Shown here one piece after another: positions 2,392-46,044 of a DNA stretch of 64,000 bases (position 1 is the first letter of the stretch; each line of letters starts with the position of its first letter). Below the pieces are notes generated by a model. It worked only from the letters and a program-made list of their open reading frames with translations. It did no database searches and had not been told where the DNA came from. Origin of the DNA: a virus. A program made the translations under genes and the position numbers. Location of the stretch: positions 45,774-109,773 of the IMG/VR virus record IMGVR_UViG_3300022927_000008. One strand, 5' to 3'.

Positions 2392-3329
2392 TATTTTTTA
2401 ACAATACAGTTAGTTCTCCTAAATTCAATATTATTAGTAAATACTAAATCTTCTTTATAATAATAATTCCCTTCTTTATTACTATTTAAAATAAAAATAT
2501 AAGATACAGGGGTGGGTTTAAGAGGGTGTATACTTCCATCTTCATGTTCCAAACTACATGGATCTGGGAAAGTTCCCTCTTTAGGCCAAATCAAATATGA
2601 GTTTTTTTCAGAATAAAAATATATGTTTACTAAAGATTGCCCTAAAGTATATTTTCCATTAAAACTTTTATATACTCCTGAAAAGGGGATATCTTGTGTG
2701 TGTGGGAATTTTTGGTTTGAGTACTTCTCAATTGCCCATTTAAAAAAAGATTCACAGAACCAACCCTCTTTAAGGTTAGGATCATTGACTGTTCCCTCTT
2801 TATACAAATTAAGCACAGGCTCTATAGAATTTACATATGTGTTACAGGGAAGAGCAAATATATTAGTTGCAAAATTATAATCCTCCCCTTCTCCCCAAGG
2901 AAAAAATAAAGGATCTCCTTTTTCCCCTCTGTTAATAAATTTATAAAAGTTTTCTTCACTTAATTCTATATCATAGTTTAGATGATAAACATAATCATAT
3001 CCTAAACTTTGACACAACTTAATTGCTTTAAGTATTTGGTGAAGATGAGCATAGCCATAATCCCATTCTACAAATTCCGCATAAAGATTTTCTCCCCACT
3101 CTATTTTAGGATCTACAAGCTCCCAAAATACAGCATACCTATTAGGTCTAGGATTTTCTTTAATATTTAAAGTATAATCTACCTTTTGTTGTATTTCTAT
3201 AGGAATGGGGAAGTTACCCGCAAATATTACGGGTAACTTTTTATCTTGTAAAAAATCTACAAGTTTGTGAGCAATTTTTATTTTCTCACTATTGTTTATA
3301 TGGGAAGTAACTAATATACAAGGACTCAT
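2391..3329 (-). CDS. hypothetical protein, possibly glycosyltransferase-related
   Basis: 312-aa ORF coupled to the GT2 gene; HLNYD motif. Confidence 0.6.
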   Translation of the reverse strand: MSPCILVTSHINNSEKIKIAHKLVDFLQDKKLPVIFAGNFPIPIEIQQKVDYTLNIKENPRPNRYAVFWELVDPKIEWGENLYAEFVEWDYGYAHLHQILKAIKLCQSLGYDYVYHLNYDIELSEENFYKFINRGEKGDPLFFPWGEGEDYNFATNIFALPCNTYVNSIEPVLNLYKEGTVNDPNLKEGWFCESFFKWAIEKYSNQKFPHTQDIPFSGVYKSFNGKYTLGQSLVNIYFYSEKNSYLIWPKEGTFPDPCSLEHEDGSIHPLKPTPVSYIFILNSNKEGNYYYKEDLVFTNNIEFRRTNCIVKK

Positions 3330-3538
3330 GTCAATGTCATAACCTCAGAATGGTGATAGAATTTACCTCTTTTAAAATCGGCTTTTTTAATCCTACGACC
3401 TTTACCAGACTCTGCTTTTTGTACAAAGTAGTAAGGACCTTCCCTATCATCGTAGGCTACTTGGTTAATTTCAGCAGTAACAATATAATCATTACCCTTA
3501 CGTGAGTCTGGGACTCGGACTTGTTCGAACATTTTCAT
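3326..3538 (-). CDS. hypothetical protein
   Basis: ATGA overlap with the next gene. Confidence 0.6.
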   Translation of the reverse strand: MKMFEQVRVPDSRKGNDYIVTAEINQVAYDDREGPYYFVQKAESGKGRRIKKADFKRGKFYHHSEVMTLT

Positions 3539-3557
3539 TTTATAACTTATTTAGTTG

Positions 3558-3637
3558 TACCTAAGGTGGGACTCGAACCCACACGCCGAAGCACTAGTTC
3601 CTAAGACTAGCGTGTATACCAATTCCACCACTTAGGC
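3558..3637 (-). tRNA. tRNA-Leu(TAG)
   Basis: Cloverleaf; anticodon arm CTAGT-CTTAGGA-ACTAG, long variable arm, GTTCGAGT T-loop. Confidence 0.95.
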
Positions 3638-3646
3638 AAATAACCC

Positions 3647-3871
3647 TTAGTGGGTCATTTTAGCTGTAGGCTCAACAGCTGCAAGGCTATCAAGCAATTC
3701 ACCTACAGTCTCGATTGAGTCTGTATTAAAAGGCATTTCTACACCTGTAGTGTCCCACTGTAGGCTGTCAGTTGCACAGCTATCAGCCATAGGGGTTACA
3801 CAGTTTTCGTCTTCGGTTCCTCCACAAGAGGCAAGAGCAACAATTGCTCCAATAAAAAATAGTTGTTTCAT
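3647..3871 (-). CDS. small lipoprotein
   Basis: MKQLFFIGAIVALASC lipobox followed by an acidic tail. Confidence 0.7.
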   Translation of the reverse strand: MKQLFFIGAIVALASCGGTEDENCVTPMADSCATDSLQWDTTGVEMPFNTDSIETVGELLDSLAAVEPTAKMTH

Positions 3872-4092
3872 CGTTTTGTATTTTGGTTTGTTAAAATGTA
3901 CCATGGTGGTACGTCTGATTTCTTTTTTGGTAGTTTTCTAAATGTTTGTACTTCGGGGTAATTATACCCTTCATGTAGTAATCTAACTGTTTTATCTTTG
4001 GTATTAATGTTAAGAACCTCTCCTTGGACCTCCTCGCCAAATAGAAAAAAATTTATAATATCTCCTACTTTCATTACCAATCCCTTTGACAT
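3868..4092 (-). CDS. hypothetical protein (SH3/KOW-like beta fold possible)
   Basis: MKVGDII...GEV pattern; ATGA overlap with the lipoprotein gene. Confidence 0.55.
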   Translation of the reverse strand: MSKGLVMKVGDIINFFLFGEEVQGEVLNINTKDKTVRLLHEGYNYPEVQTFRKLPKKKSDVPPWYILTNQNTKR

Positions 4093-4289
4093 TGCTTACG
4101 GGGGACCCTAGCATATCTAGTACGAATTCCATTGTTGTAGGAATTACCTCTTCCACTATACCTCATATGAGAAAATTTTCCATCATTAGTAAAAACAGCA
4201 GATTGGGTTCTGCTATTATAATAATAAGGAGAACAACTTGACAATCCAAGGGCAATAAACAACCCCAATAAGTAACTTAAATGTTTCAT
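4074..4289 (-). CDS. small lipoprotein
   Basis: Hydrophobic leader ending LGLSSC; preceded by the ATATTTAT motif. Confidence 0.65.
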   Translation of the reverse strand: MKHLSYLLGLFIALGLSSCSPYYYNSRTQSAVFTNDGKFSHMRYSGRGNSYNNGIRTRYARVPRKQCQRDW

Positions 4290-4305
4290 TTGTAATAAAT
4301 ATTTG

Positions 4306-4375
4306 AGGTTAGGGGTGGAATTGCACCACCGTAATAGGATTTGCGATCCTATACCTTCTAATCGGACACCTAACC
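4306..4375 (-). tRNA. tRNA-Cys(GCA), atypical
   Basis: Acceptor GGTTAGG/CCTAACC with U73; anticodon arm TAGGA-TCGCAAA-TCCTA; non-canonical C33, T-loop TGCAATT and short D arm. Confidence 0.75.
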
Positions 4376-4380
4376 ATATT

Positions 4381-4620
4381 GCCCCAGCCAGCGCTGAGGA
4401 CTTGTCCGTCTGGTATCTCGTCGGACCACTGAGATTCTATATTCTGGGTTATAGAAAACCTAGTCTCCCATATTAGACCAAGGGTTATTATGGGGTGATG
4501 TCTGTTCCCCTCTCTGACCCCAAGTATCAGGCCAACTGGGAATCGAACCCAGAGACATCGACTACTAGAATACTGCCATATCCGTTCGCACTTTTACCCC
4601 TCTCCCCCTGGCAGGGGGGA
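4381..4620 (-). ncRNA. candidate ~240-nt structured ncRNA containing a permuted tRNA-like domain
   Basis: Terminal stem CCCC-GCCAG/CTGGC-GGGG, internal T-arm CTGGG-TTCGATT-CCCAG and further hairpins; no track ORF; lies between two tRNAs. Confidence 0.6.
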
Positions 4621-4623
4621 AAT

Positions 4624-4698
4624 TGGAGCCACTAGTCGGAATTGAACCAACGACCGATGCTTTACAAGAGCATTGCTCTACCGCTGAGCTATAGTGGC
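4624..4698 (-). tRNA. tRNA-Thr(TGT)
   Basis: Cloverleaf, ATGCT-CTTGTAA-AGCAT, encoded CCA. Confidence 0.95.
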
Positions 4699-4718
4699 TA
4701 CATTCGCCTCACACGCTG

Positions 4719-4792
4719 TGATCCCGCTGGGACTCGAACCCAGGACCCTCTCATTAAAAGTGAGATGCTCTAACCAACTGAGCTACGGGATC
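4719..4792 (-). tRNA. tRNA-Lys(TTT)
   Basis: Cloverleaf, TCTCA-CTTTTAA-TGAGA. Confidence 0.95.
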
Positions 4793-4795
4793 AAT

Positions 4796-5140
4796 AAATG
4801 AAGGAATGGGTAAAGAGTTATTCAGGCTCTTAAGCGCGACAAGCAGGCGGTTGTATTGGTAAATCATAATGGCACAAGAGGAGTGTTAAACCCGCATCCC
4901 ATTAATCATTTCACTTCATGGCTGCTAACCCCAATTGAAGTTCACAATATCGCTTAGTAGAATTTAGTTCCACTATCACACAACCACACCCTAATAGGCC
5001 CACACCGGGCTTTCACCCCCTACAGCGCTTGCTGTAAGTCGAGCTACCTATTAACATGTGTACTTTATTCCCCTAATCATAGGAACACATTCAGTCATAC
5101 CCCCCCGTGCGTGATCAGCGCGGTAGGGTTTCCTTCATTT
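4796..5140 (-). ncRNA. candidate ~345-nt highly structured ncRNA (unclassified)
   Basis: Perfect 11-bp closing stem AAATGAAGGAA/TTCCTTCATTT; several helices with G-U pairs only on the minus strand; GAAA tetraloop; fills the Ile-Lys tRNA gap. Confidence 0.7.
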
Positions 5141-5141
5141 G

Positions 5142-5215
5142 TAGGAACGGCAGGAATCGAACCTGCGACCTTCAAGATATAAGCTTGATGCTCTAACCAA
5201 TTGAGCTACGTTCCC
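5142..5215 (-). tRNA. tRNA-Ile(TAT)
   Basis: Cloverleaf, TCAAG-CTTATAT-CTTGA. Confidence 0.9.
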
Positions 5216-5289
5216 ATATTGGTGCGTCATTTTATTACGCAGTGACGTCATCAGCGAATGCTATTTATTTCAATAAGTAAAGAACCTAG

Positions 5290-5363
5290 TACTCCCTACA
5301 GGATTTGAACCTGTGACCCACAGCTTAGAAGGCTGTTGCTCTATCCAGCTGAGCTAAGGGAGC
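5290..5363 (-). tRNA. tRNA-Arg(TCT)
   Basis: Cloverleaf, ACAGC-CTTCTAA-GCTGT. Confidence 0.95.
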
Positions 5364-5371
5364 ATATTTTG

Positions 5372-5456
5372 TAGCGCTGGGGGGACTCGAACCCCCACGG
5401 ACCTACGGTCCAACAGATTTTAAGTCTGTCGTGTCTACCACTTCCACCACAGCGCC
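5372..5456 (-). tRNA. tRNA-Leu(TAA)
   Basis: Cloverleaf, ACAGA-CTTAAAA-TCTGT, long variable arm. Confidence 0.95.
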
Positions 5457-5467
5457 ATATTTTTATT

Positions 5468-5557
5468 TTATTTTTTAATGTACTTAAAGTAAGTGTAAGT
5501 ATTAAAAATAACCAATAAACTCAAAAAACTCCAACAATAAATTTGAAAATCTGTCAT
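5468..5557 (-). CDS. 29-aa single-TM peptide (paralog of 5836-5931; not in track)
   Basis: MTDFQIYCWSFLSLLVIFNTYTYFKYIKK, behind a promoter. Confidence 0.55.
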   Translation of the reverse strand: MTDFQIYCWSFLSLLVIFNTYTYFKYIKK

Positions 5558-6367: not shown

Positions 6368-6425
6368 TAAATATACGATGAAAGATCAGCAATTCCACAT
6401 TTTAGGATGACTTTAAGATGACCTT
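6368..6425 (-). promoter_or_regulatory. promoter TGTGG-N17-CGTATATTTA with tandem GTCATC boxes
   Basis: Repeat of the 5982-6012 block. Confidence 0.7.
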
Positions 6426-6727
6426 CTTCTTCCTTTTTTAGGCTCAATACCCAACTGCCTTTCCAATTCACGCAACTCACGGTTCCGCTTGACTTTTTCC
6501 TTACCAACAGCAACCTGCTGTTTGCTAGGGACTCGGTCCTCCATCTCACCACGGAACTCCCTCATGAACTCCTCGCAGTCACGGCGGTCCATTTTTCCGC
6601 CATAACGTACTGCCTCTTTATAATGCCTAGCAACAGCTTCAGCATTTCCAGTAATCATAGCATAGGCTAGTTCAGCCATCCTACCATGGTAGTTCCGCTT
6701 ACGGCGGCGATTGTTGTGATTACGCAT
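6413..6727 (-). CDS. basic hypothetical protein
   Basis: Arg/Lys-rich termini; noticeably higher GC than neighbours. Confidence 0.65.
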   Translation of the reverse strand: MRNHNNRRRKRNYHGRMAELAYAMITGNAEAVARHYKEAVRYGGKMDRRDCEEFMREFRGEMEDRVPSKQQVAVGKEKVKRNRELRELERQLGIEPKKGRRRSS

Positions 6728-7992: not shown

Positions 7993-8148
7993 TCAAAATA
8001 GATCAAGGTAATCTCCTTTTATTTGTTTTGACTTGAATTTAAGCATCTTTTCGTCATTCTCCAAACTTTTTGTCGCAAGCTTTTCAAGATGTTTACGTTT
8101 TTGTCCATCGTAATCGTCTACTAATTTTTGATGCTTACGCTTTTTCAT
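7993..8148 (-). CDS. 51-aa hypothetical protein (not in track)
   Basis: MKKRKHQKLVDDYDGQKRKHLEKL...DYLDLF fills the gap between genes. Confidence 0.55.
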   Translation of the reverse strand: MKKRKHQKLVDDYDGQKRKHLEKLATKSLENDEKMLKFKSKQIKGDYLDLF

Positions 8149-8842
8149 ACTTAAAGTATTTTATAGTAAAGTTACTAAGTGGTATTTCTGAATAGGGCAT
8201 ATCCTGTGTAACATGGTTATTTATTACAACATTCATTTTAGTATTATTTACCTGTTTCATTACAACTGGATCACTTATTACACGGACTAATCTGTCATTG
8301 TAATAAAACTTTAATGAGTCTAAGCTCCAATTTAATTTGTACTTTAAGAAGTGTTTTGTGGGATCTTTAAAGCCCATAAAATGACTTTTAGGTCCCCACA
8401 TTTTATTTTTACCCTCTTCAGAGTAGTGTACATTTGTATCTATATGCCTACAAGCCCAAGGTTTGTTCCAATTAAACCTATGATAATTTGGTTTTTTATG
8501 AGAATAACCTTCAAATATATCAATTTCAGGGGGCCAACTGTCCCAACTCCACATCCAAAAAGCAGGCCATAAGTTCTTACCATATGGTAATTTAGCTTTT
8601 ATTTCAAATATGCCAGGACCAAATTCAGTAGCACATGATACCAAACCTACACCTACTTTAGGTCTAATTCCTAATTCTTTAAACTCCTTAGGGTTGTATT
8701 GGGTTTTTAAAGTTAAATAGTTTTTTAATGTAATTTGAACTGCACTAGGATCATACCAACAATAGGGTTTATCCTTGTGTACCTGTCCCCACCTTTCTTG
8801 GGTTAACCATTTATATCCTGACCATTCTATTACTTTGCTCAT
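8135..8842 (-). CDS. glycoside hydrolase family 16 (laminarinase-like)
   Basis: WPAFWMW and catalytic EIDIFE (ExDxxE) motif. Confidence 0.85.
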   Translation of the reverse strand: MSKVIEWSGYKWLTQERWGQVHKDKPYCWYDPSAVQITLKNYLTLKTQYNPKEFKELGIRPKVGVGLVSCATEFGPGIFEIKAKLPYGKNLWPAFWMWSWDSWPPEIDIFEGYSHKKPNYHRFNWNKPWACRHIDTNVHYSEEGKNKMWGPKSHFMGFKDPTKHFLKYKLNWSLDSLKFYYNDRLVRVISDPVVMKQVNNTKMNVVINNHVTQDMPYSEIPLSNFTIKYFKYEKA

Positions 8843-10193: not shown

Positions 10194-10970
10194 TTAGAAA
10201 TCTAACATTTTAGAGTTATTGTCTGGGTTGTGTTTAGCCCATTGCCCCCATTTGTACTTAAAATATTCGTGGCAAAGTTGTTCTTTTTGCTGTTTGTTAA
10301 TTTTTTCTTCATAAGTAGCTTCTGTGCCATATGAAACAAAGTGATAAAAATGGCACTCGTAAGTTCTTAACATTCTTAATCCTGCTATCTCACATTTAAG
10401 AAAAAAGTCCCAATCAACAACCCAAGCACCAGGATAAGATTCATCCCATCCCCCTATTTTCATATAATCCCATTTATTCATAAAAATAGGTAAGGTACAC
10501 CCAGTTTCTTCAACTTTACTTTCTTCTATAATACTTTCTTCATACTCCCAAAATGCCTTTAAATCAAACTTTTTAGGATCCCTACCTAAATTTTTAATAT
10601 GCATCTGTTTGAACATGCTAGGAATAGGTTCAATTTGATTGGGAGTAACTACAGATCCAGGAGAATAACTTGCTATTAATGCTATATCCCATTGGTCTGG
10701 GAATACATTGTCATCGTTGACTATAAGGATTTTGTTTGATGTAGCATTAAAAACTCCTAAGTTAGTAGCCCTGCTAAGACCCACATTTTCTTCTAAGTTA
10801 AGGATTTCAATGTGTTTTTTATACTTTTCAAGGATCTCTTTATTTAGATCATAAAAACCATCTACTACTACTATTATTTGATTCTTTTCAGTTTGACCTT
10901 CAATAGCAGATTTTAAACACAGATCTAAAACTTCAGGTTCTTTATAAGTAGGAATAATTACAGAAATCAT
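10194..10970 (-). CDS. GT2 family glycosyltransferase
   Basis: ISVIIPTY, VVVDG, NDD and GGWDE motifs. Confidence 0.9.
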   Translation of the reverse strand: MISVIIPTYKEPEVLDLCLKSAIEGQTEKNQIIVVVDGFYDLNKEILEKYKKHIEILNLEENVGLSRATNLGVFNATSNKILIVNDDNVFPDQWDIALIASYSPGSVVTPNQIEPIPSMFKQMHIKNLGRDPKKFDLKAFWEYEESIIEESKVEETGCTLPIFMNKWDYMKIGGWDESYPGAWVVDWDFFLKCEIAGLRMLRTYECHFYHFVSYGTEATYEEKINKQQKEQLCHEYFKYKWGQWAKHNPDNNSKMLDF

Positions 10971-10987
10971 ATTTTAAAATTATTTTA

Positions 10988-11728
10988 TTAAGAAGTAATT
11001 TTTATGCTATATAGTTCACCTTCAAATAAAGTTGTAGTAAGGTAACCTAATAACCTTTCGAACCCATGGGCTAAACTACCATAGCGGTCATATCCCTCTT
11101 CAAATTTAGGAAGGAGAGAAGGAATATCTATTAAATTATAAAGATTTTTCATATAGAGATCATTTACTAAAAACATAGTCCCAGCAAAAAAAGGAGGGGC
11201 AAGTCTTTTATCTTTAAATACTAAAGTAGAGTCTGTGTTGAGGAGTTTTAATGCTTTTTTTATAAAGGGAAGAGCATCTAGATAATTTACGTTATCTAAA
11301 GTTTCACTAAATAACCAAGGAGCAGAACCTACCATACAGGGGACCGTATTAGATGAAAGCTCAGAAAGAGCAGTAACATATTGCATATTACTATGTAAAA
11401 AGCTATCTACTAATTGAGTTCTCCACATTTCTCCTAACTTAGGGGTATGAATAGACTTTTTTCCATGGATCTTTATATAATATTTATAAGGAATTGACTT
11501 AATTTGATCACAAACATGTAAGAAAGGAGCTACATCTAACCCTTTATTTTCTACTAAAAATACTTCTTTACTATACTTACTAATATCTTTTATATAGGGG
11601 GTATTTAAATTGTTTACACTAACATACAAATCAGTTTTAGGATTATTTTGCAAAATAGATTTTAACCTAACTCTAAACCAAGGCCACAAATCTTGATAGT
11701 GTAAATGTAAAATAATAGCTACTTTCAT
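10988..11728 (-). CDS. RgpF (rhamnan synthesis F)-like protein
   Basis: LHLHYQDLW, ENKGLDVAPF, KIHGKKS, FFAGTMF, AHGFER. Confidence 0.8.
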   Translation of the reverse strand: MKVAIILHLHYQDLWPWFRVRLKSILQNNPKTDLYVSVNNLNTPYIKDISKYSKEVFLVENKGLDVAPFLHVCDQIKSIPYKYYIKIHGKKSIHTPKLGEMWRTQLVDSFLHSNMQYVTALSELSSNTVPCMVGSAPWLFSETLDNVNYLDALPFIKKALKLLNTDSTLVFKDKRLAPPFFAGTMFLVNDLYMKNLYNLIDIPSLLPKFEEGYDRYGSLAHGFERLLGYLTTTLFEGELYSIKITS

Positions 11729-12345
11729 CCTATTTGTGCATATCTATTATTTTGAAAAACTTGTCGTTCTATTTCTTTATTATGAATAATACTAAAATGT
11801 TCTTCCATAGGTAAAGTAACATAAGTTTCATAACCTTTAACCATCCCATGTACTTGATGTCCTTCCCACTGAATTTTGGAGGAATTTTTATATATTCTTT
11901 TTTGAGGGTCAGGCCAGTTTACCCATCCTTCAGGTGATACCTGCCATCCCCATTGTTTAGTGTGTTGGGGGGTAAGACCTTCTACTATGTTTTTTCTGGG
12001 GGTAATTAATAAATCAACAGGGTTCTCTTTAAGGATATTTTTTAGGTTAATTAGAAGAATCTCACTAGGAATCTCATCAGCATCTAATTGAAATATGTAG
12101 TCCCCAGTACATTTAGTTTGGAGGTAATTTTTATTTTCTAAAAAGTTTTGTTTAAAATCAAAAGGATAGTAATCAATGTCATCTTCATACTTTTCAAGAA
12201 CTTCTATAGTCTCATTAGTAATCCGATTCTTATCATATACTATTACAATTTCATCTTCATTGTCAATTTTTTCTATTAAATAAGAAATTAAATTATCTAT
12301 TTCTTTATCTTCATTACATACTGTAAGGCCGTAACTTATTTTCAT
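11725..12345 (-). CDS. GT2 family glycosyltransferase
   Basis: FQLDADE motif. Confidence 0.85.
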   Translation of the reverse strand: MKISYGLTVCNEDKEIDNLISYLIEKIDNEDEIVIVYDKNRITNETIEVLEKYEDDIDYYPFDFKQNFLENKNYLQTKCTGDYIFQLDADEIPSEILLINLKNILKENPVDLLITPRKNIVEGLTPQHTKQWGWQVSPEGWVNWPDPQKRIYKNSSKIQWEGHQVHGMVKGYETYVTLPMEEHFSIIHNKEIERQVFQNNRYAQIG

Positions 12346-12773
12346 TTTTTTTCTTCTTTAAACATACCAATATAATCAAGAGCTTCCATATAATCGTGTT
12401 CGGCAAAGTGTTTTAGATTTTGCATATCCATTTTATAAGTTTTTTCACTTTGATCTTCAGAAAGAGCTTTTACAGCAGCCCATCTCCATTCTTTAACATT
12501 TTTACCATCAGCATACACCATTCCTTTTTCAGGATTATTAGTAGCAGAAGGCATCCAATTTAAACCTTTATCATCTACATAAATAAGATCCTTATACAAC
12601 TCGGGAAGTATTTCTATTTGCTCACTAAGAAATGAACTGCCAGATTGCATTAAAGTATTAGTTGTAAATCCACACCCATAACATAAACTTATAACGTAAT
12701 CCGCCCCCATTTCTTGTTCGTAACAAGCATCGCTTCCACAACGAGGACATATTGTTAATTTATCTTTCAACAT
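12342..12773 (-). CDS. zinc-ribbon hypothetical protein
   Basis: CPRC...CYGC. Confidence 0.7.
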   Translation of the reverse strand: MLKDKLTICPRCGSDACYEQEMGADYVISLCYGCGFTTNTLMQSGSSFLSEQIEILPELYKDLIYVDDKGLNWMPSATNNPEKGMVYADGKNVKEWRWAAVKALSEDQSEKTYKMDMQNLKHFAEHDYMEALDYIGMFKEEKK

Positions 12774-14040
12774 TTTCTAATTTTTTAAGTTTAGGTAATT
12801 TCAAACTAATTTCATTAGGGACATCAGGTAAGTGTTCTTCCATTATTACCTCTAAAGCTTGTTTCATATTTCCATAACTAAAATGGTTTTTACTTTTATG
12901 GTATTGGAGTAATGCCTGTTTTTTATATTTAGGATAGTTATCAAAAACATCTTTTAAATAGGAAACTGCCTGAGAGGGTTCTACTGAGAACCAACTTCCT
13001 TCTTTAAGGAGAATGTTTTTTACTAATGCACTATCATGTACTTTAGTAAGCTTTCCTTCTAACAAAGTAGTAAATTTACTATCTAAAAAATCAATATGGC
13101 CACTCCAATTAGTAGTAATAATAGGTTTTTTAGTTAAACTAAATTCTAATAAGGGTCTACCAAATCCTTCCCCTTTAGTTAAAGATATCATAGCTTTAAC
13201 TTTTTTATGATTGTAAAGATTATTCATCTCTTCATCAGTAAGTTCACCATGAAGTAAATAAATATTAGGTAAAGTGTCTGCTTCTATTGTTTTTTTAATT
13301 TCATCTATTTTATCTAAGATCATTTCTCTATCCATATAAGATGCACCCGCCCCACTAGTTTTTAAAATTAATGCAGGTGTTTTTTTCTGGTTTTTGAATG
13401 TTTCGTAGAAGAGTTTTATCATTAGGCCTACATTTTTCCTATCTTCTCCTACAACTCCTTGCATCCAATGTCCTACAAATAAGTAAGCAAATTGATCTTT
13501 TATATCTTTTAAATCAAATTTATTAGTTTCTTTTGAAGGAAAATATTTAGTTAAATCCGCTCCTTCAAATAATACTTCTATAGGTTTTTCTATATATATT
13601 TCAACAGGAGTATCTCCTTCTTTATGTTCAAATCTAAGGTTTTCAAATGTATTTTTGGAATGATTTGAAGATACTAAATTTAAATCCATTCTATTTAATC
13701 CCTGGATCCATGAGGGATCACATACGGTGGTTTCTATGCCGGCAGTAATTCCAATATTATATTCCCCTACAGGTTGGAATTCATTAGGTACACTAATTTG
13801 AGCCCACACTTGGGGTTTCGCAGGAAGTTGATTACCTGGAGGAAGAAGGTGGGGTTGTATAAATCCCCATTCCTCTAAATTATTTTCTATAAACCCCCAA
13901 GGGCAACTCCCCCATCTTTGGGGTAGAACTTTTACATTATATTTGTCAAGCTCAATAATAGCTCTAACTAAATCTCGAGAACGTGCTCCATAACCTGAGT
14001 AAGTGTCTATGGGGCAACTTATTATAAATAAAGGTTTCAT
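12760..14040 (-). CDS. GT4 family glycosyltransferase
   Basis: SGYG, DRKN and EGFGRPLLE motifs. Confidence 0.9.
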   Translation of the reverse strand: MKPLFIISCPIDTYSGYGARSRDLVRAIIELDKYNVKVLPQRWGSCPWGFIENNLEEWGFIQPHLLPPGNQLPAKPQVWAQISVPNEFQPVGEYNIGITAGIETTVCDPSWIQGLNRMDLNLVSSNHSKNTFENLRFEHKEGDTPVEIYIEKPIEVLFEGADLTKYFPSKETNKFDLKDIKDQFAYLFVGHWMQGVVGEDRKNVGLMIKLFYETFKNQKKTPALILKTSGAGASYMDREMILDKIDEIKKTIEADTLPNIYLLHGELTDEEMNNLYNHKKVKAMISLTKGEGFGRPLLEFSLTKKPIITTNWSGHIDFLDSKFTTLLEGKLTKVHDSALVKNILLKEGSWFSVEPSQAVSYLKDVFDNYPKYKKQALLQYHKSKNHFSYGNMKQALEVIMEEHLPDVPNEISLKLPKLKKLENVER

Positions 14041-15491
14041 TAATATTCTAATTTATGGGGTGTTACTTTTGGTTTTCTAGTGTCTATTTTGATTAGTTCA
14101 TACCTTTCTCGGGGCTTCCAATTTTTAAATAATGTATCTATATTATCTATAATACGGTAGGACATTTTTTCTGCAGTGAATCCTGCTTCATCACTTAGAG
14201 CCCACTTTCTTCCTATTTCTCCTTTAATTTTTCTTTCTTTAGCCCCCATTTCCCATACCTCAAATAATCTATTAGCGGCATCACTAGAATCACATCTATC
14301 ATCAAAAATATAAGGGGTAGGAGGGGAACCTTGGATTGAAATACTTGAAGGGAAAATAGGAAAGGCCCATTCTCCATGTTGGGTATATGTTTTTCTATGG
14401 TTTGAAGGTATTTTCTCATTAGGGGTAAACCATTTTCCTTTATTATCTATAAATCTCATTTGGTCTTGCATTCCCCCGGTAACATTAGCTACTATAGGGT
14501 TACCTACAAGTAAAGCTTCGGTTAAACTTAACCCCCACCCTTCATTAGATGTAAGTTGGATCTGAACATCAGAGCAATTATATAGAAAATTCATATGCTC
14601 AGTATCCAATTTATCCTCTACAAATAAAATGTTATACTTTTTATCATCCCCACACAAAGTTTCAATAACAGCAGGTAAATTGGTACCATTAGGATCTATC
14701 CTTTGGGTTTTTAATATTAGAAGACATTTCTCAGCTTGCTTGGGAGTAAGTTTATCAACGAATTGTTTATAGGCCCAAATAGTATCTGGTATCTGTTTAC
14801 GCCTAATGTTTCTAGAGTTGTAAAGGGTAACAAAATCATATTCTTTGCCTTTAAAAAGCTCAGTTTTAAACTCTTCAAGCTGAGTGGCTTTTTCGTGTGA
14901 TTTGTCGATAGGGAAAAATATTTTATGATTTAGCCCATGGGGAACATAAGAAATAATTTTATTTTTAGCTTTATCTCCTAATACTAATTTATTTATATTA
15001 ACAGTCTGTTTTGAAATGCCCATTAACAAATCACATGATTCATAATATTCTTTATTATACATTGGGGCTGGGAAGTCGTCCCAAATATTTAAATAAATAA
15101 TAGGAATATTTTGCCTAATTTCGTTTTCCATTTGAAACAACCAAGTCCAATATCTGGGGTCAGTAAATATAAAAATGGCATCAGGCTGCTCTCTTTTTAT
15201 AAAGAACCTCACTGCATCGGGGTTCCCATACCCATTACTAGGGTATATAGTTACTGAGGTGTCTTCTAATCCTGTTATTTTATTGGTTTCAGGGCTTAAA
15301 TCTATAATTTTTCCTTCTTCAGGGTGTTGTATTGCTGCTCCTATATTTACCCAATTATAGTGATGGCAGGTATGGAGCACCATTTCTTTGGCTATAGTCC
15401 CTATTCCCGAATGAGTCCTAATATCATCACACATTAGGAGTATCTTTTTACGTTCCTCTTTGGGAACATATCCTTTCATTTTCGTAACCAT
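14040..15491 (-). CDS. GT4 family glycosyltransferase
   Basis: RNIRRK and EGWGLSLTEA motifs. Confidence 0.9.
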   Translation of the reverse strand: MVTKMKGYVPKEERKKILLMCDDIRTHSGIGTIAKEMVLHTCHHYNWVNIGAAIQHPEEGKIIDLSPETNKITGLEDTSVTIYPSNGYGNPDAVRFFIKREQPDAIFIFTDPRYWTWLFQMENEIRQNIPIIYLNIWDDFPAPMYNKEYYESCDLLMGISKQTVNINKLVLGDKAKNKIISYVPHGLNHKIFFPIDKSHEKATQLEEFKTELFKGKEYDFVTLYNSRNIRRKQIPDTIWAYKQFVDKLTPKQAEKCLLILKTQRIDPNGTNLPAVIETLCGDDKKYNILFVEDKLDTEHMNFLYNCSDVQIQLTSNEGWGLSLTEALLVGNPIVANVTGGMQDQMRFIDNKGKWFTPNEKIPSNHRKTYTQHGEWAFPIFPSSISIQGSPPTPYIFDDRCDSSDAANRLFEVWEMGAKERKIKGEIGRKWALSDEAGFTAEKMSYRIIDNIDTLFKNWKPRERYELIKIDTRKPKVTPHKLEY

Positions 15492-15503
15492 TTTGTTTTT
15501 TTA

Positions 15504-15686
15504 TTATAAATCTAAACTATTGTGATTGTGGATTTGACGTTTAAAGTCTTCATCAGTAAGATACAAATGAACACAACGGTCAGCAAGTTTTTGAAAAGAA
15601 AACTTATGTCTAACACATGCTACTTTAAATTCTTCAAATAAATCACTTTGAATTTTTACGCTTGTTAATGTTAAATCTTTTTTCAT
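15504..15686 (-). CDS. ribbon-helix-helix-like small DNA-binding protein
   Basis: LTSVKI beta-strand followed by two helices. Confidence 0.6.
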   Translation of the reverse strand: MKKDLTLTSVKIQSDLFEEFKVACVRHKFSFQKLADRCVHLYLTDEDFKRQIHNHNSLDL

Positions 15687-15719
15687 AGCTAATATATTTT
15701 GATATAAATATTCGCGAAA

Positions 15720-16460
15720 TTAAAAAGATGTGTTTCGGGTATAACCCTCCTCAAAATGATCAACAGTTAACTTATTGATAAATACAGGTTTTAAATCATG
15801 TTGTTTCATCCAAGGGTTAACTCTATTATAAAAATTTATATCTCCAGGTTCACGTCTTCCATAAAAATATAAAGGGTCTCTTCTTCTTAAAGGTATAATT
15901 CTATAGTTAATACAAGTACTAGAATTAATTATATTAATAGGAGTTGGGGGGAGATTAGTATAAAGTTCTGGGGGGTTTTGGCGGGGTAAAACACCATTTA
16001 GGTATTTGGATTTAGTATAAAGAAATGGAGATTGAGTAGTTTCTATTGCTGTAGCTAAGGTTTCTAAATGATCAGGAAAATAAATATCATCGTGGTCTAA
16101 TTTACAGATATAATCATAACCTTCGTTTATAGCATATTCTATCCCTATGTTGGTACCGTGGGCACCCCCACTATGCCATAAATCCTCTCCTCCTTTAGGA
16201 TACCTTTTCCTTTCTACAGCCACTGGAAGGTTAATGGGTAGGGTTTTATTTGGGGGGCAAAGTTTAATTATTTGTTCAAATTCTGCTTTGTCTTTGTAAT
16301 TATCTCCTATTAAGTATATTTTCCAATTTTTATATGTTTGGTTAAAAACACTTTGTAAGGTATTTTTTATATAACTAAATGTTTTACCATCAGGTCTATA
16401 ATAAGTAGTTACAACTATTGCTAATTTAGGGTTACTATATTTTTTATTTATAAGTTCCAT
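15720..16460 (-). CDS. GT2 family glycosyltransferase
   Basis: NQTYKNW and LDHDD motifs. Confidence 0.85.
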   Translation of the reverse strand: MELINKKYSNPKLAIVVTTYYRPDGKTFSYIKNTLQSVFNQTYKNWKIYLIGDNYKDKAEFEQIIKLCPPNKTLPINLPVAVERKRYPKGGEDLWHSGGAHGTNIGIEYAINEGYDYICKLDHDDIYFPDHLETLATAIETTQSPFLYTKSKYLNGVLPRQNPPELYTNLPPTPINIINSSTCINYRIIPLRRRDPLYFYGRREPGDINFYNRVNPWMKQHDLKPVFINKLTVDHFEEGYTRNTSF

Positions 16461-44334: not shown

Positions 44335-46044
44335 TCACCCATCACAAGAAACGCATTCTGCAGTACGGGATCCTAAATCTCCTTTTATCACGGAATCTGT
44401 GCGAAGATAATATAAAGTTTTAACTCCTAATTTCCAAGCCTCCATATGACACTGGTTAATCCATTTAGGGGAATCAGTAGGGTCAAATGAAAGGTTTAGA
44501 GATTGTGTTTGATCAATATATTTTTGTCTAATAGCTGCTTGCCTAACTAATTCAAGTTGATTTACCTCACTAAATGTTAAATATACCTCCTTTTCGTCAG
44601 GTGATAATATATCTTCAGATAAATTTTGAACAGAACCATTGTCTGCTAAGATTTGATCCCATACTTTATCTGTGTTGTGTCCTTTACCTTCTAATAAACA
44701 TTCCAATTCTTTATTTTTAACAATAAATGTTCCTTTAGCACCATTAAAAGTGTAGATATTAGCTGGGATGGGCTCAATACCTGCTGAACAATTGTTTAGG
44801 CGAGAATTTGAGACTGTAGGTGCAATAGCAAGTAAGTGGGTATTTCTCATACCTGTACCCTTACACCAAGTAGGTTCACCATATTCTTCAGCAAGTTGTC
44901 TTGAAGTAGCTTCTGCTTTACTTCTAATATCACTAAAAATAGTATGGGTCCAGGCTGTTGAAGCAATAGAATTAAATGGCAATCCTTTTTGTTGAAGGAA
45001 TGAGTGCCAACCCATTACACCTAATCCTAATGCTCTACCTTTTTTAGCGTGTCTCCAAGTACGAATAAGTGATTCTTTACCTGCACTTTTATCAATAAAC
45101 TCTTGCATTACACCATCTAAAAAGCGAATAGATGTTTCTACTACATCAGTATCTTTCCACTCATCGTATTTTGCGAGGTTTAAAGAGCTTAAACAGCAAA
45201 TAAAACTATGCTCTTCATCTGTGTGGAGTGTAATCTCAGTACAAATATTAGTCATACTGACATCAAGGTTATTCATAGCATATGCTAAAGGGTTGTTTTT
45301 ATTAACATTATCCTTAAACATAATATATGGTTCACCTGTTTCTACACGTGTTTTAAGTATCTCAAGCCAAAGTTTCATAGCATTGCTGTCCCTATCTTGT
45401 AGACGTCTCATAAAAGTATCATCTACTACAACACATTGGTGTAGATTAAGACACTGTCTATTAGGATCACCTTTAGGTCTACGAATCTGCATAAACTCAT
45501 CAATATCAAGGTGATTGATATCTAAGTTTACAGAAGCAGCACCTCTACGAACTGAACCTTGGTTAGTTGCTATGATAGCTGAGTCGTAGATTTTACACCA
45601 TGGTACTACACCTTCACTTTTACCATTACCTGTAATTGTAGTTCCTCTAGGGCGAATTCTAGAAACACTAATACCTACACCACCACCTAAAGCGGTAAGT
45701 TTCATAAGTTCAGCATTTGTTAATCCAATTCCCCTAACGCTATCAGGTGTATCAATACCAAAACAGCTGATGGGAAGACCCCTATCGGTCCCAGTGTTAG
45801 ATAACACGGGAGAAGCAAGGCCAATCCAACCGTTCCAAATATATCTGTAGAACTTATTTTCCAGATCTGGTCTATTAATACGTTCTGCGATCGCTTTCGC
45901 AACTCTTCTGTAGGCTTTCTTTGGTGTTTCATCCGGTAATAAATACCCTTTAGATATAGTTGCTACGCCTACTTCATCCATCCATTCAGGGTAATCCTTT
46001 CCTGCAACCCAATTTGTTGTATCTGCTACTAAATTTCCGTCCAT
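44335..46044 (-). CDS. nrdA: ribonucleotide reductase class I alpha subunit (no ATP cone)
   Basis: PISCF, RRGA, TNICTE, APT, TLYY, C-terminal CVSC. Confidence 0.97.
   Translation of the reverse strand: MDGNLVADTTNWVAGKDYPEWMDEVGVATISKGYLLPDETPKKAYRRVAKAIAERINRPDLENKFYRYIWNGWIGLASPVLSNTGTDRGLPISCFGIDTPDSVRGIGLTNAELMKLTALGGGVGISVSRIRPRGTTITGNGKSEGVVPWCKIYDSAIIATNQGSVRRGAASVNLDINHLDIDEFMQIRRPKGDPNRQCLNLHQCVVVDDTFMRRLQDRDSNAMKLWLEILKTRVETGEPYIMFKDNVNKNNPLAYAMNNLDVSMTNICTEITLHTDEEHSFICCLSSLNLAKYDEWKDTDVVETSIRFLDGVMQEFIDKSAGKESLIRTWRHAKKGRALGLGVMGWHSFLQQKGLPFNSIASTAWTHTIFSDIRSKAEATSRQLAEEYGEPTWCKGTGMRNTHLLAIAPTVSNSRLNNCSAGIEPIPANIYTFNGAKGTFIVKNKELECLLEGKGHNTDKVWDQILADNGSVQNLSEDILSPDEKEVYLTFSEVNQLELVRQAAIRQKYIDQTQSLNLSFDPTDSPKWINQCHMEAWKLGVKTLYYLRTDSVIKGDLGSRTAECVSCDG

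Follow-up and report, generated by a model that had tools for sequence, protein, structure and literature searches.

What occupies the space between two adjacent tRNA genes of an uncultured phage when that space is larger than either gene and encodes no protein? The question arises from a 64,000-nucleotide stretch of IMG/VR record IMGVR_UViG_3300022927_000008 (positions 45,774 to 109,773, the 3′ 64 kb of a 109.8-kb phage record; hereafter the window), in which a tRNA operon on the minus strand holds 348 nt between tRNA-Ile(UAU) and tRNA-Lys(UUU). The initial annotation, made from the letters alone, had assigned to this gap an unclassified structured RNA closed by a perfect 11-bp stem abutting both tRNAs. 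Our comparative analysis confirms that the gap is filled by a real, conserved and folded non-coding RNA gene of ~345 nt, which falls in no Rfam family. Taking the separate parts of the proposal jointly, we think it on balance probable that this RNA is a product of the tRNA operon released by tRNA processing, that it is an enlarged RNA of the manA type, and that it acts in trans.

A scan of IMG/VR for both strands of the closing stem, suitably spaced, returned four further loci (L164 to L167), with element identities of 97.7% (L167), 95.7% (L164), 92.4% (L166) and 86.2% (L165). The element lies between tRNA-Ile(UAU) and tRNA-Lys(UUU) in 5/5 loci; in the homologues it starts 0-5 nt after the former and ends 3-8 nt before the latter, and it is single-copy in each record examined. 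The closing stem of the window (4796-4806/5130-5140) is the only perfect 11-mer inverted-repeat pair within 4300-5500 (1.2 kb). It begins 0-1 nt past tRNA-Ile and stops 3 nt short of tRNA-Lys. No open reading frame (ORF) of more than 37 codons was found in the element and none is conserved across the five sequences, the longest stop-free frame dropping from 60 to 31 codons among the homologues. The guanine-plus-cytosine (GC) content of the element is 0.44-0.47, compared to ~0.30-0.33 in nearby coding DNA. Both the absence of an ORF and the higher GC content had been noted in the initial annotation. The single sequence folds with an unremarkable energy (z = -1.75 for the minus strand, -3.45 for the plus strand), which by itself says little, so that the case rests on comparative evidence.

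A consensus fold was predicted with RNAalifold from an alignment of the five sequences (A2), and its pairs were counted independently. The fold comprises 110 pairs in 14 helices, and 97.8% of its cells are standard pairs. Compensatory double changes, the covariation that the initial annotation had called for, were found at seven pairs, compared to 2.1±1.1 in shuffled alignments (0/500 reached seven); when the 3′ partners were slid by 1-3 columns, only 0-1 compensatory pairs were counted. The changes are spread over six helices, namely the stem of a three-way junction, its two hairpins, the long-range helix RNA 160-166/301-307, the hairpin RNA 237-274 and the 5-bp 3′ hairpin, the last of which carries two (RNA numbering starts at the first base of the closing stem). 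An alternative register of the second hairpin adds an eighth compensatory pair, U-A to C-G in two sequences, and so accounts for two changes that the consensus register does not explain. Five of the six helices that had been proposed from the window alone recur in the consensus (4955-4962/4968-4975, 4992-4998/5047-5053, 5007-5018, 5021-5036 and the closing stem). The sixth, 4849-4856/4978-4985, is not part of it: it is 95% paired, with two mismatches and no compensatory change, and it overlaps the better-supported RNA 160-166/301-307.

The same alignment identifies the strand of the RNA. On the minus strand 529 of 541 cells are canonical, 81 of the 541 being G·U, compared to 453 of 541 on the plus strand. 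Given these G·U cells and the loss of pairing on the other strand, the RNA is made from the same strand as the tRNAs, as had been argued earlier from G-U pairs in three helices.

Within the fold, the long-range helix RNA 160-166/301-307 (helix 8) is 100% paired, with one compensatory A-U to G-C change and one U·G to C-G change. Helices 5-7, which build the three-way junction, have one compensatory pair each, and one sequence carries an inserted U-A pair in helix 6. The two compensatory pairs of the 3′ hairpin (helix 14) occur in L167, where G-C became A-U and A-U became G-C. The GNRA hairpin inside the junction has a GAAA loop in three sequences and GAGA in L166; it is deleted altogether in L165, and so appears peripheral and dispensable. 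By eye, the hairpin RNA 167-185 is kept in 5/5 sequences, and its score of 77% in the automatic alignment is due to registers shifted among the sequences.

Two long blocks, RNA 17-56 and RNA 189-232, are invariant. They are silent on pairing and point to sequence-specific constraints. The 44-nt hairpin domain RNA 193-236 displays the loop bases AGCAG, which are complementary to CUGCU at RNA 295-299; both sides are invariant, and together they are a possible pseudoknot or intermolecular contact. Likewise invariant are ACCC at RNA 330-333, GGGU at RNA 39-42, with which it could pair, and a competing ACCC at RNA 12-15, which RNAalifold chose as the partner. GGGU and the ACCC at RNA 330-333 are placed as expected for the pseudoknot of manA, in which the 5′ G-run pairs with a C-rich strand past the last hairpin. 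Several other loop-loop pairings (CUAAA/UUAG, UUAACA/UGUUAA) were dismissed as they are not conserved among the five sequences.

Matches beyond the five loci came from metagenomic runs. In an index of such runs, 20 runs from 18 studies contain window 4600-5300 in whole or in part, six metatranscriptomes among them, and four of these runs were compared with the window. Contigs over the element differ from it at 8 positions in 294 nt (coral), 3 in 114 nt and 1 in 111 nt (marine), 0 in 147 nt and 1 in 111 nt (freshwater-labelled), and 0 in 610 nt (salt-marsh RNA). For the coral and marine relatives, identity is 97-99% in the element, compared to ~88-91% in small ORFs and other spacers. Among the variants listed for the runs, at least four insertions or deletions and no base substitutions fall inside the element, and this listing adds no covariation data.

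Other searches found little. A blastn search of the element against 50,697 GenBank phages returned no match. Among 162 loci around homologues of a neighbouring glycosyltransferase (IMG/VR and JGI metagenomes) no element was detected by nhmmer, blastn or a covariance model of the RNA (R1), and two glycosyltransferase relatives with 55-64% protein identity (L086, L087) have no tRNAs at that place. Of three exact 18-mers of the RNA, GGGGGTGAAAGCCCGGTG had no match, and the other two returned only the four known homologues and one unrelated chance family (L177-L180). Model R1 also found nothing in 151 Bacteroidota genomes, a sample that does not prove absence. The family is small and uncatalogued: five members so far, near-identical copies in four runs, and indexed matches in others.

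Does the RNA belong to a known class? No Rfam family reaches its threshold in the window, and at E≤10 none matches within the element, whether 2.4 kb or the 376-nt slice alone is searched. The label "unclassified" therefore holds at threshold, but must be tempered by a weak sub-threshold match to manA (RF01745) over the 5′ third of the RNA in 2/5 homologues. On the homologue slices manA was the only structured match, with 18.6 bits and E=0.01 for the L164 type (L182) and 13.6 bits and E=0.32 for the L166 type (L190). The match covers the 5′ ~75 nt. Its well-aligned part, RNA 18-80, consists of a hairpin, a G-run, UGACUGAAU, a second hairpin closed by AC/GU pairs, and then UAAAGU. This is the 5′ order of manA itself (hairpin, GGGaG, a GUGaCUGAAUAAaCUU core, hairpin, and UAAgGu with aC/Gu closure), so that hairpin, G-run, UGACUGAAU, hairpin and UAArGU form a core common to both. 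Within it, UGACUGAAU matches the manA consensus at 9/9 positions and the first hairpin aligns to the first hairpin of manA at high posterior probability. The AC...GU closing pairs were also predicted independently by RNAalifold (alignment columns 46-47/79-80), and the manA-like core is invariant outside its hairpin. The bases after UGAAU differ, being GUG here and AAaCUU in manA.

The identity of the sole matching family is informative because manA is typical of marine T4-like cyanophages (PMC2864571). By our own reading of the consensus, the correspondence in order extends to the later elements: first a multi-stem that includes a GNRA hairpin, next a 7-bp stem, then a 5-bp hairpin and last a C-rich strand that could pair with the G-run. 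Several features nevertheless set the two apart. The RNA described here is nearly twice as long, has ~134 nt of extra helices on the 7-bp stem in place of the simple P4 hairpin of manA, carries an added 11-bp closing stem, and lies between tRNAs rather than in a 5′ untranslated region. We regard the chances of kinship to manA as about even and do not file the RNA as a member. A second manA core nested in the 3′ half was sought and rejected, there being no second match and no internal duplication. Separately, a sub-threshold manA match of 12.5 bits was seen in cyanophage S-RSM4 (L195, NC_013085 142403-142544), which may be a degenerate or divergent manA.

Other large or stable RNAs of phage tRNA clusters offer precedents. 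GOLLD, which we take to be RF01998, and ROOL, presumably RF03087, gave no Rfam match at E≤10 in the element or its homologues. They differ from it in fold and in size (~580 and 800 nt or more, compared to ~345 nt here). Both are large ornate RNAs of phages and prophages, often near tRNA islands, with no known function or protein partner (PMC12286853), and the earlier comparison with them is apt as context, not as homology. In the T4 annotation, rnaC (species 1, 139 nt) and rnaD (species 2, 119 nt) lie in the tRNA cluster with function unknown. Since rnaD begins 1 nt past tRNA-Arg, these small stable RNAs would depend on tRNA processing, and they are the nearest precedent for the release suggested here. 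They are less than half the size of the RNA described here and show no similarity to it: in the T4 region, model R1 picks up nothing beyond trivial hairpins.

Taken together, these comparisons lead us to favour the following scheme. The RNA would be transcribed on the minus strand together with the tRNAs and, to judge by its position, kept in 5/5 loci, released by tRNA processing. RNase P cleavage at tRNA-Lys +1 would leave the 3′ end ...UUCAUUU-AUU-3′OH, 3 nt beyond the closing stem. At the other end, cleavage after the tRNA-Ile discriminator would produce 5′-C-AAAUGAAGG, 1 nt before the closing stem. RNase Z is the probable enzyme because tRNA-Ile does not encode CCA (CAA follows the discriminator A). 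In the product of ~349 nt, the 11-bp stem would lock both ends of the multi-domain, 14-helix fold, and this end-locked form would resist exonucleases. We infer from the resemblance described above that a manA-type core has gained peripheral helices. During infection the RNA would act in trans as a free, self-folded particle, possibly a self-associating one, rather than as a switch in a 5′ untranslated region.

How such particles might associate is a further question. The invariant loop of the first hairpin contains the self-complementary UGAUCA, and we speculate that this loop and AGCAG/CUGCU are contacts between copies. According to a 2026 preprint (bioRxiv 10.64898/2026.07.01.735769), kissing loops join manA RNAs into 8-, 10- and 60-mers that contain RNA only. 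It is conceivable, if distinctly improbable, that the excised, enlarged manA-type module self-assembles through these contacts into a multimer of RNA alone, as manA, GOLLD and ROOL are reported to do.

Several observations weigh against the favoured scheme. The alignment holds five sequences only, two of them almost identical. The closing stem is invariant in 5/5 sequences and therefore, like the large conserved blocks, shows no covariation either way. In the salt-marsh RNA run the contig over the element has the same depth as a neighbouring contig of 5 kb (17.1 compared to 15.7), and contigs as such show neither transcription nor ends nor abundance. The manA scores are far under the gathering score of 55.2 bits, and the genuine manA RNAs of P-SSM4 and P-SSM2 reach 184 and 182 bits. 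No manA match was obtained for the window's own copy, for L165, the most divergent copy, or for L183. In the reciprocal direction, a model of the 5′ domain (R2) misses the manA loci of P-SSM4 and P-SSM2 at E≤5; its reach is short, however, as it was built from near-identical sequences with an effective sequence number of 0.8. Aligned by sequence alone, the RNA shows no significant similarity to manA. Finally, the manA P3 multi-stem has three hairpins, GUGGUG and uaACCA loops and a GNRA hairpin. The RNA described here has two hairpins, of which the GNRA one corresponds, and is without the GUGGUG and ACCA loops.

These points lend weight to the best-surviving alternative, namely that the RNA is processed and stable but represents an independent new class unrelated to manA, the weak match arising from chance and generic hairpins. 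All the structural and conservation evidence applies to such a class, which might serve, for example, as a protein scaffold or a host-factor decoy, and the two copies that match manA are just those with a GC-richer second hairpin. Yet the single family to match among 4227 is characteristic of marine T4-like phages; its match lies on the invariant unpaired core and not on hairpins alone; and the order of elements corresponds along the whole RNA. We consider an independent class rather unlikely.

A different possibility is that the element works in cis, as a riboswitch-like or processing element of the tRNA transcript that governs read-through, stability or maturation of downstream tRNAs or genes. 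A cis-regulatory role was proposed for manA (PMC2864571). Glycosyltransferase genes lie on both sides of the locus, and both manA and wcaG RNAs occur in association with genes for sugars and exopolysaccharides. However, a tRNA and not an ORF is directly downstream, and the 3′ end of the element shows no terminator-like hairpin and none that would sequester a ribosome-binding site. The first downstream glycosyltransferase is 2.4 kb off, past three tRNAs and several small ORFs. A closing stem that joins the two ends and borders a tRNA on either side fits an excised molecule, and a cis-acting role is very unlikely in our view.

The perfect 11-bp repeats could also be the terminal inverted repeats of a miniature mobile element, or of its remnant, acting at the level of DNA. 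This alone makes use of a contig from a marine metatranscriptome (run X19) that joins 4772 to 5138, so that ~27 bases of another sequence stand between the tRNA-Lys region and the tRNA-Ile region where the element would be; the contig is from a relative or another organism in which the two tRNAs are adjacent. Mobile DNA in such a place has a parallel in T4, whose tRNA cluster contains a homing endonuclease gene. Compensatory changes in six internal helices and a strong G·U strand bias are hard to reconcile with a DNA element, as are a single copy per record and the same location in 5/5 loci. No target-site duplication is visible at the ends, no empty site with tRNA-Lys adjoining tRNA-Ile was found in the IMG/VR scan, and none of the nine matches to the closing-stem pattern in prokaryote genomes is similar to the element. 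A mobile origin is thus extremely improbable. Hardly credible at all is a very divergent classical RNA missed by the models: size and closing stem recall RNase P RNA, whose substrates adjoin the element, and a few short strings resemble P4 and signal recognition particle (SRP) motifs in our own reading, but no model supports the likeness to RNase P RNA, SRP RNA or transfer-messenger RNA (tmRNA) seen by eye, neither these families nor 6S RNA nor the group I intron matched at E≤10 in the slice or the four homologues, ARAGORN called no tmRNA (in keeping with the earlier remark that RNase P and tmRNA signatures are absent), no P4-type long-range pseudoknot joins conserved strands in the supported fold, whose only GNRA loop is dispensable, and model R1 drew a blank in the Bacteroidota genomes.

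Table 1 Features of the structured RNA and of the surrounding tRNA operon (window positions; tRNAs were called by ARAGORN and Rfam)
Feature	Position	Strand	Basis or remark
Whole RNA as predicted after processing, ~349 nt	4793-5141	minus	ends predicted from RNase P and RNase Z cleavage sites: base after tRNA-Ile discriminator to base before tRNA-Lys +1
Closing stem P1, 5′ strand, RNA 1-11 (AAAUGAAGGAA)	5130-5140	minus	pairs perfectly with 4796-4806 (11 bp)
Closing stem P1, 3′ strand, RNA 335-345	4796-4806	minus	perfect inverted repeat
First hairpin, RNA 18-36, invariant loop UGAUCAC with self-complementary UGAUCA	5105-5123	minus	helix 2
manA-like core, RNA 35-79: invariant G-run and UAUGACUGAAUGUG, hairpin, UAAAGU	5062-5106	minus	
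Three-way junction domain, RNA 81-156, long stem with two hairpins	4985-5060	minus	helices 5-7
GNRA hairpin GGGU-GAAA-GCCC, RNA 123-134	5007-5018	minus	alignment
Long-range helix, 5′ strand, RNA 160-166, GUGUGAU	4975-4981	minus	helix 8, pairs with 4834-4840
Long-range helix, 3′ strand, RNA 301-307, GUCGCGC	4834-4840	minus	helix 8
Hairpin, RNA 167-185, loop CUAAA	4956-4974	minus	helix 9
Invariant 44-nt hairpin domain, RNA 193-236, loop GGUUAGCAG	4905-4948	minus	helices 11-12
Hairpin, RNA 237-274, 10-nt loop UUUAACACUC	4867-4904	minus	helix 13, one compensatory U-A to C-G
Conserved, mostly single-stranded stretch with CCUGCUU, RNA 275-300	4841-4866	minus	exception: 3-bp helix 10, RNA 292-294
3′ hairpin AAGAG-CCUGAAUAA-CUCUU, RNA 310-328	4813-4831	minus	helix 14
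ACCC, RNA 330-333	4808-4811	minus	candidate 3′ strand of a manA-like pseudoknot
tRNA-Leu(UAA)	5371-5456	minus	ARAGORN/Rfam
tRNA-Arg(UCU)	5289-5363	minus	ARAGORN/Rfam
Spacer, 73 nt, tRNA-Arg to tRNA-Ile	5216-5288	minus	in operon
tRNA-Ile(UAU)	5141/5142-5215	minus	ARAGORN and Rfam; upstream neighbour of element
Structured RNA element, 348-nt gap	4793-5140	minus	between tRNA-Ile(UAU) and tRNA-Lys(UUU)
tRNA-Lys(UUU)	4718/4719-4792	minus	ARAGORN and Rfam; downstream neighbour of element
tRNA-Thr(UGU)	4624-4698	minus	ARAGORN/Rfam
Gap, 248 nt, after tRNA-Thr	4376-4623	minus	in operon
tRNA	4306-4375	minus	Rfam (48.4 bits), no ARAGORN call; in operon
Three small ORFs			between the 4306-4375 tRNA and tRNA-Leu(UAG) in operon order
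tRNA-Leu(UAG)	3557-3637	minus	ARAGORN/Rfam

The phage that carries this operon is a distant T4-type myovirus, whose family-B DNA polymerase has 29-35% identity to gp43 of cyanomyoviruses and T-even phages. GroEL, ribonucleotide reductase and a DnaB-type helicase are among its other products, and nearly all ORFs of at least 200 aa in the window are on the minus strand. One protein has a CHU_C type-IX secretion sorting domain, which together with a phage GC content of ~32% hints at a host among the Bacteroidota. The clade is one of uncultured marine and estuarine T4-like phages.

Comparison of window 3300-5500 with L164-L167 showed the operon to be a mosaic among close relatives. The genes for tRNA-Lys, tRNA-Thr and tRNA-Leu(UAA) are 77-87% identical in some loci, and tRNA-Ile, tRNA-Arg and the RNA are 86-100% identical across the four (the element itself 86-98%). 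The downstream tRNA set also varies, with Val, Pro and Asn coming and going. This mosaic suggests that recombination is frequent at the tRNA genes. In L187, a distant relative found through the small basic protein described below, other tRNAs follow tRNA-Arg and the contig ends there.

Several neighbouring features were recorded alongside. Past tRNA-Thr, the 248-nt gap has a high GC content (~0.50) and is kept in L166 and L167 with 95-97% conservation; in L164 it keeps its first 111 nt only, followed by tRNA-Pro and tRNA-Asn. It holds a perfect T-arm-like hairpin at 4536-4552 (CTGGGAATCGAACCCAG) and a G/C hairpin at 4598-4622. ARAGORN and Rfam call no tRNA or other family in this gap, which could be what is left of a tRNA, or else another unclassified RNA. 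The 73-nt spacer upstream of tRNA-Ile is 91-97% conserved in the homologues, apart from L165, of which only 44/73 nt align. Two GTCAT boxes 21 nt apart (GCGTCAT at 5222 and ACGTCAT at 5243) lie there inside imperfect palindromes, and the spacer may serve as an internal promoter or bind a protein immediately before tRNA-Ile and the RNA.

On the minus strand at window 6413-6727 a very basic 104-aa protein is encoded, with an arginine-rich N-terminus (MRNHNNRRRKRNY) and a basic C-terminus. It matches no Pfam or PHROG family, is kept ~1 kb upstream of the tRNA operon in 4/4 homologous loci and in the distant L187, and could bind nucleic acid. Sugar-handling genes are unusually many around the operon (1252-2391, 8135-8842 and 10194-16460), including several family-2 and family-1 glycosyltransferases, a GH16 glycoside hydrolase and an RgpF-like rhamnan synthesis protein.

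The RNA thus belongs to a known kind, the ornate phage RNAs of tRNA islands, which repeatedly harbour large folded RNAs of unknown function such as T4 rnaC and rnaD, GOLLD and ROOL. At ~345 nt it is compact, its ends are precisely predicted by the flanking tRNAs, and near-identical copies occur in salt-marsh, coral, marine and freshwater-labelled runs. These properties make it a convenient case for in vitro processing, structure probing and cryo-electron microscopy. If kinship to manA is true, the manA core would serve not only within 5′ untranslated regions but also as a free-standing RNA cut from its precursor, which would bear on whether manA is a riboswitch at all. Were the multimer reading also true, RNA cages would be linked directly to phage tRNA operons.

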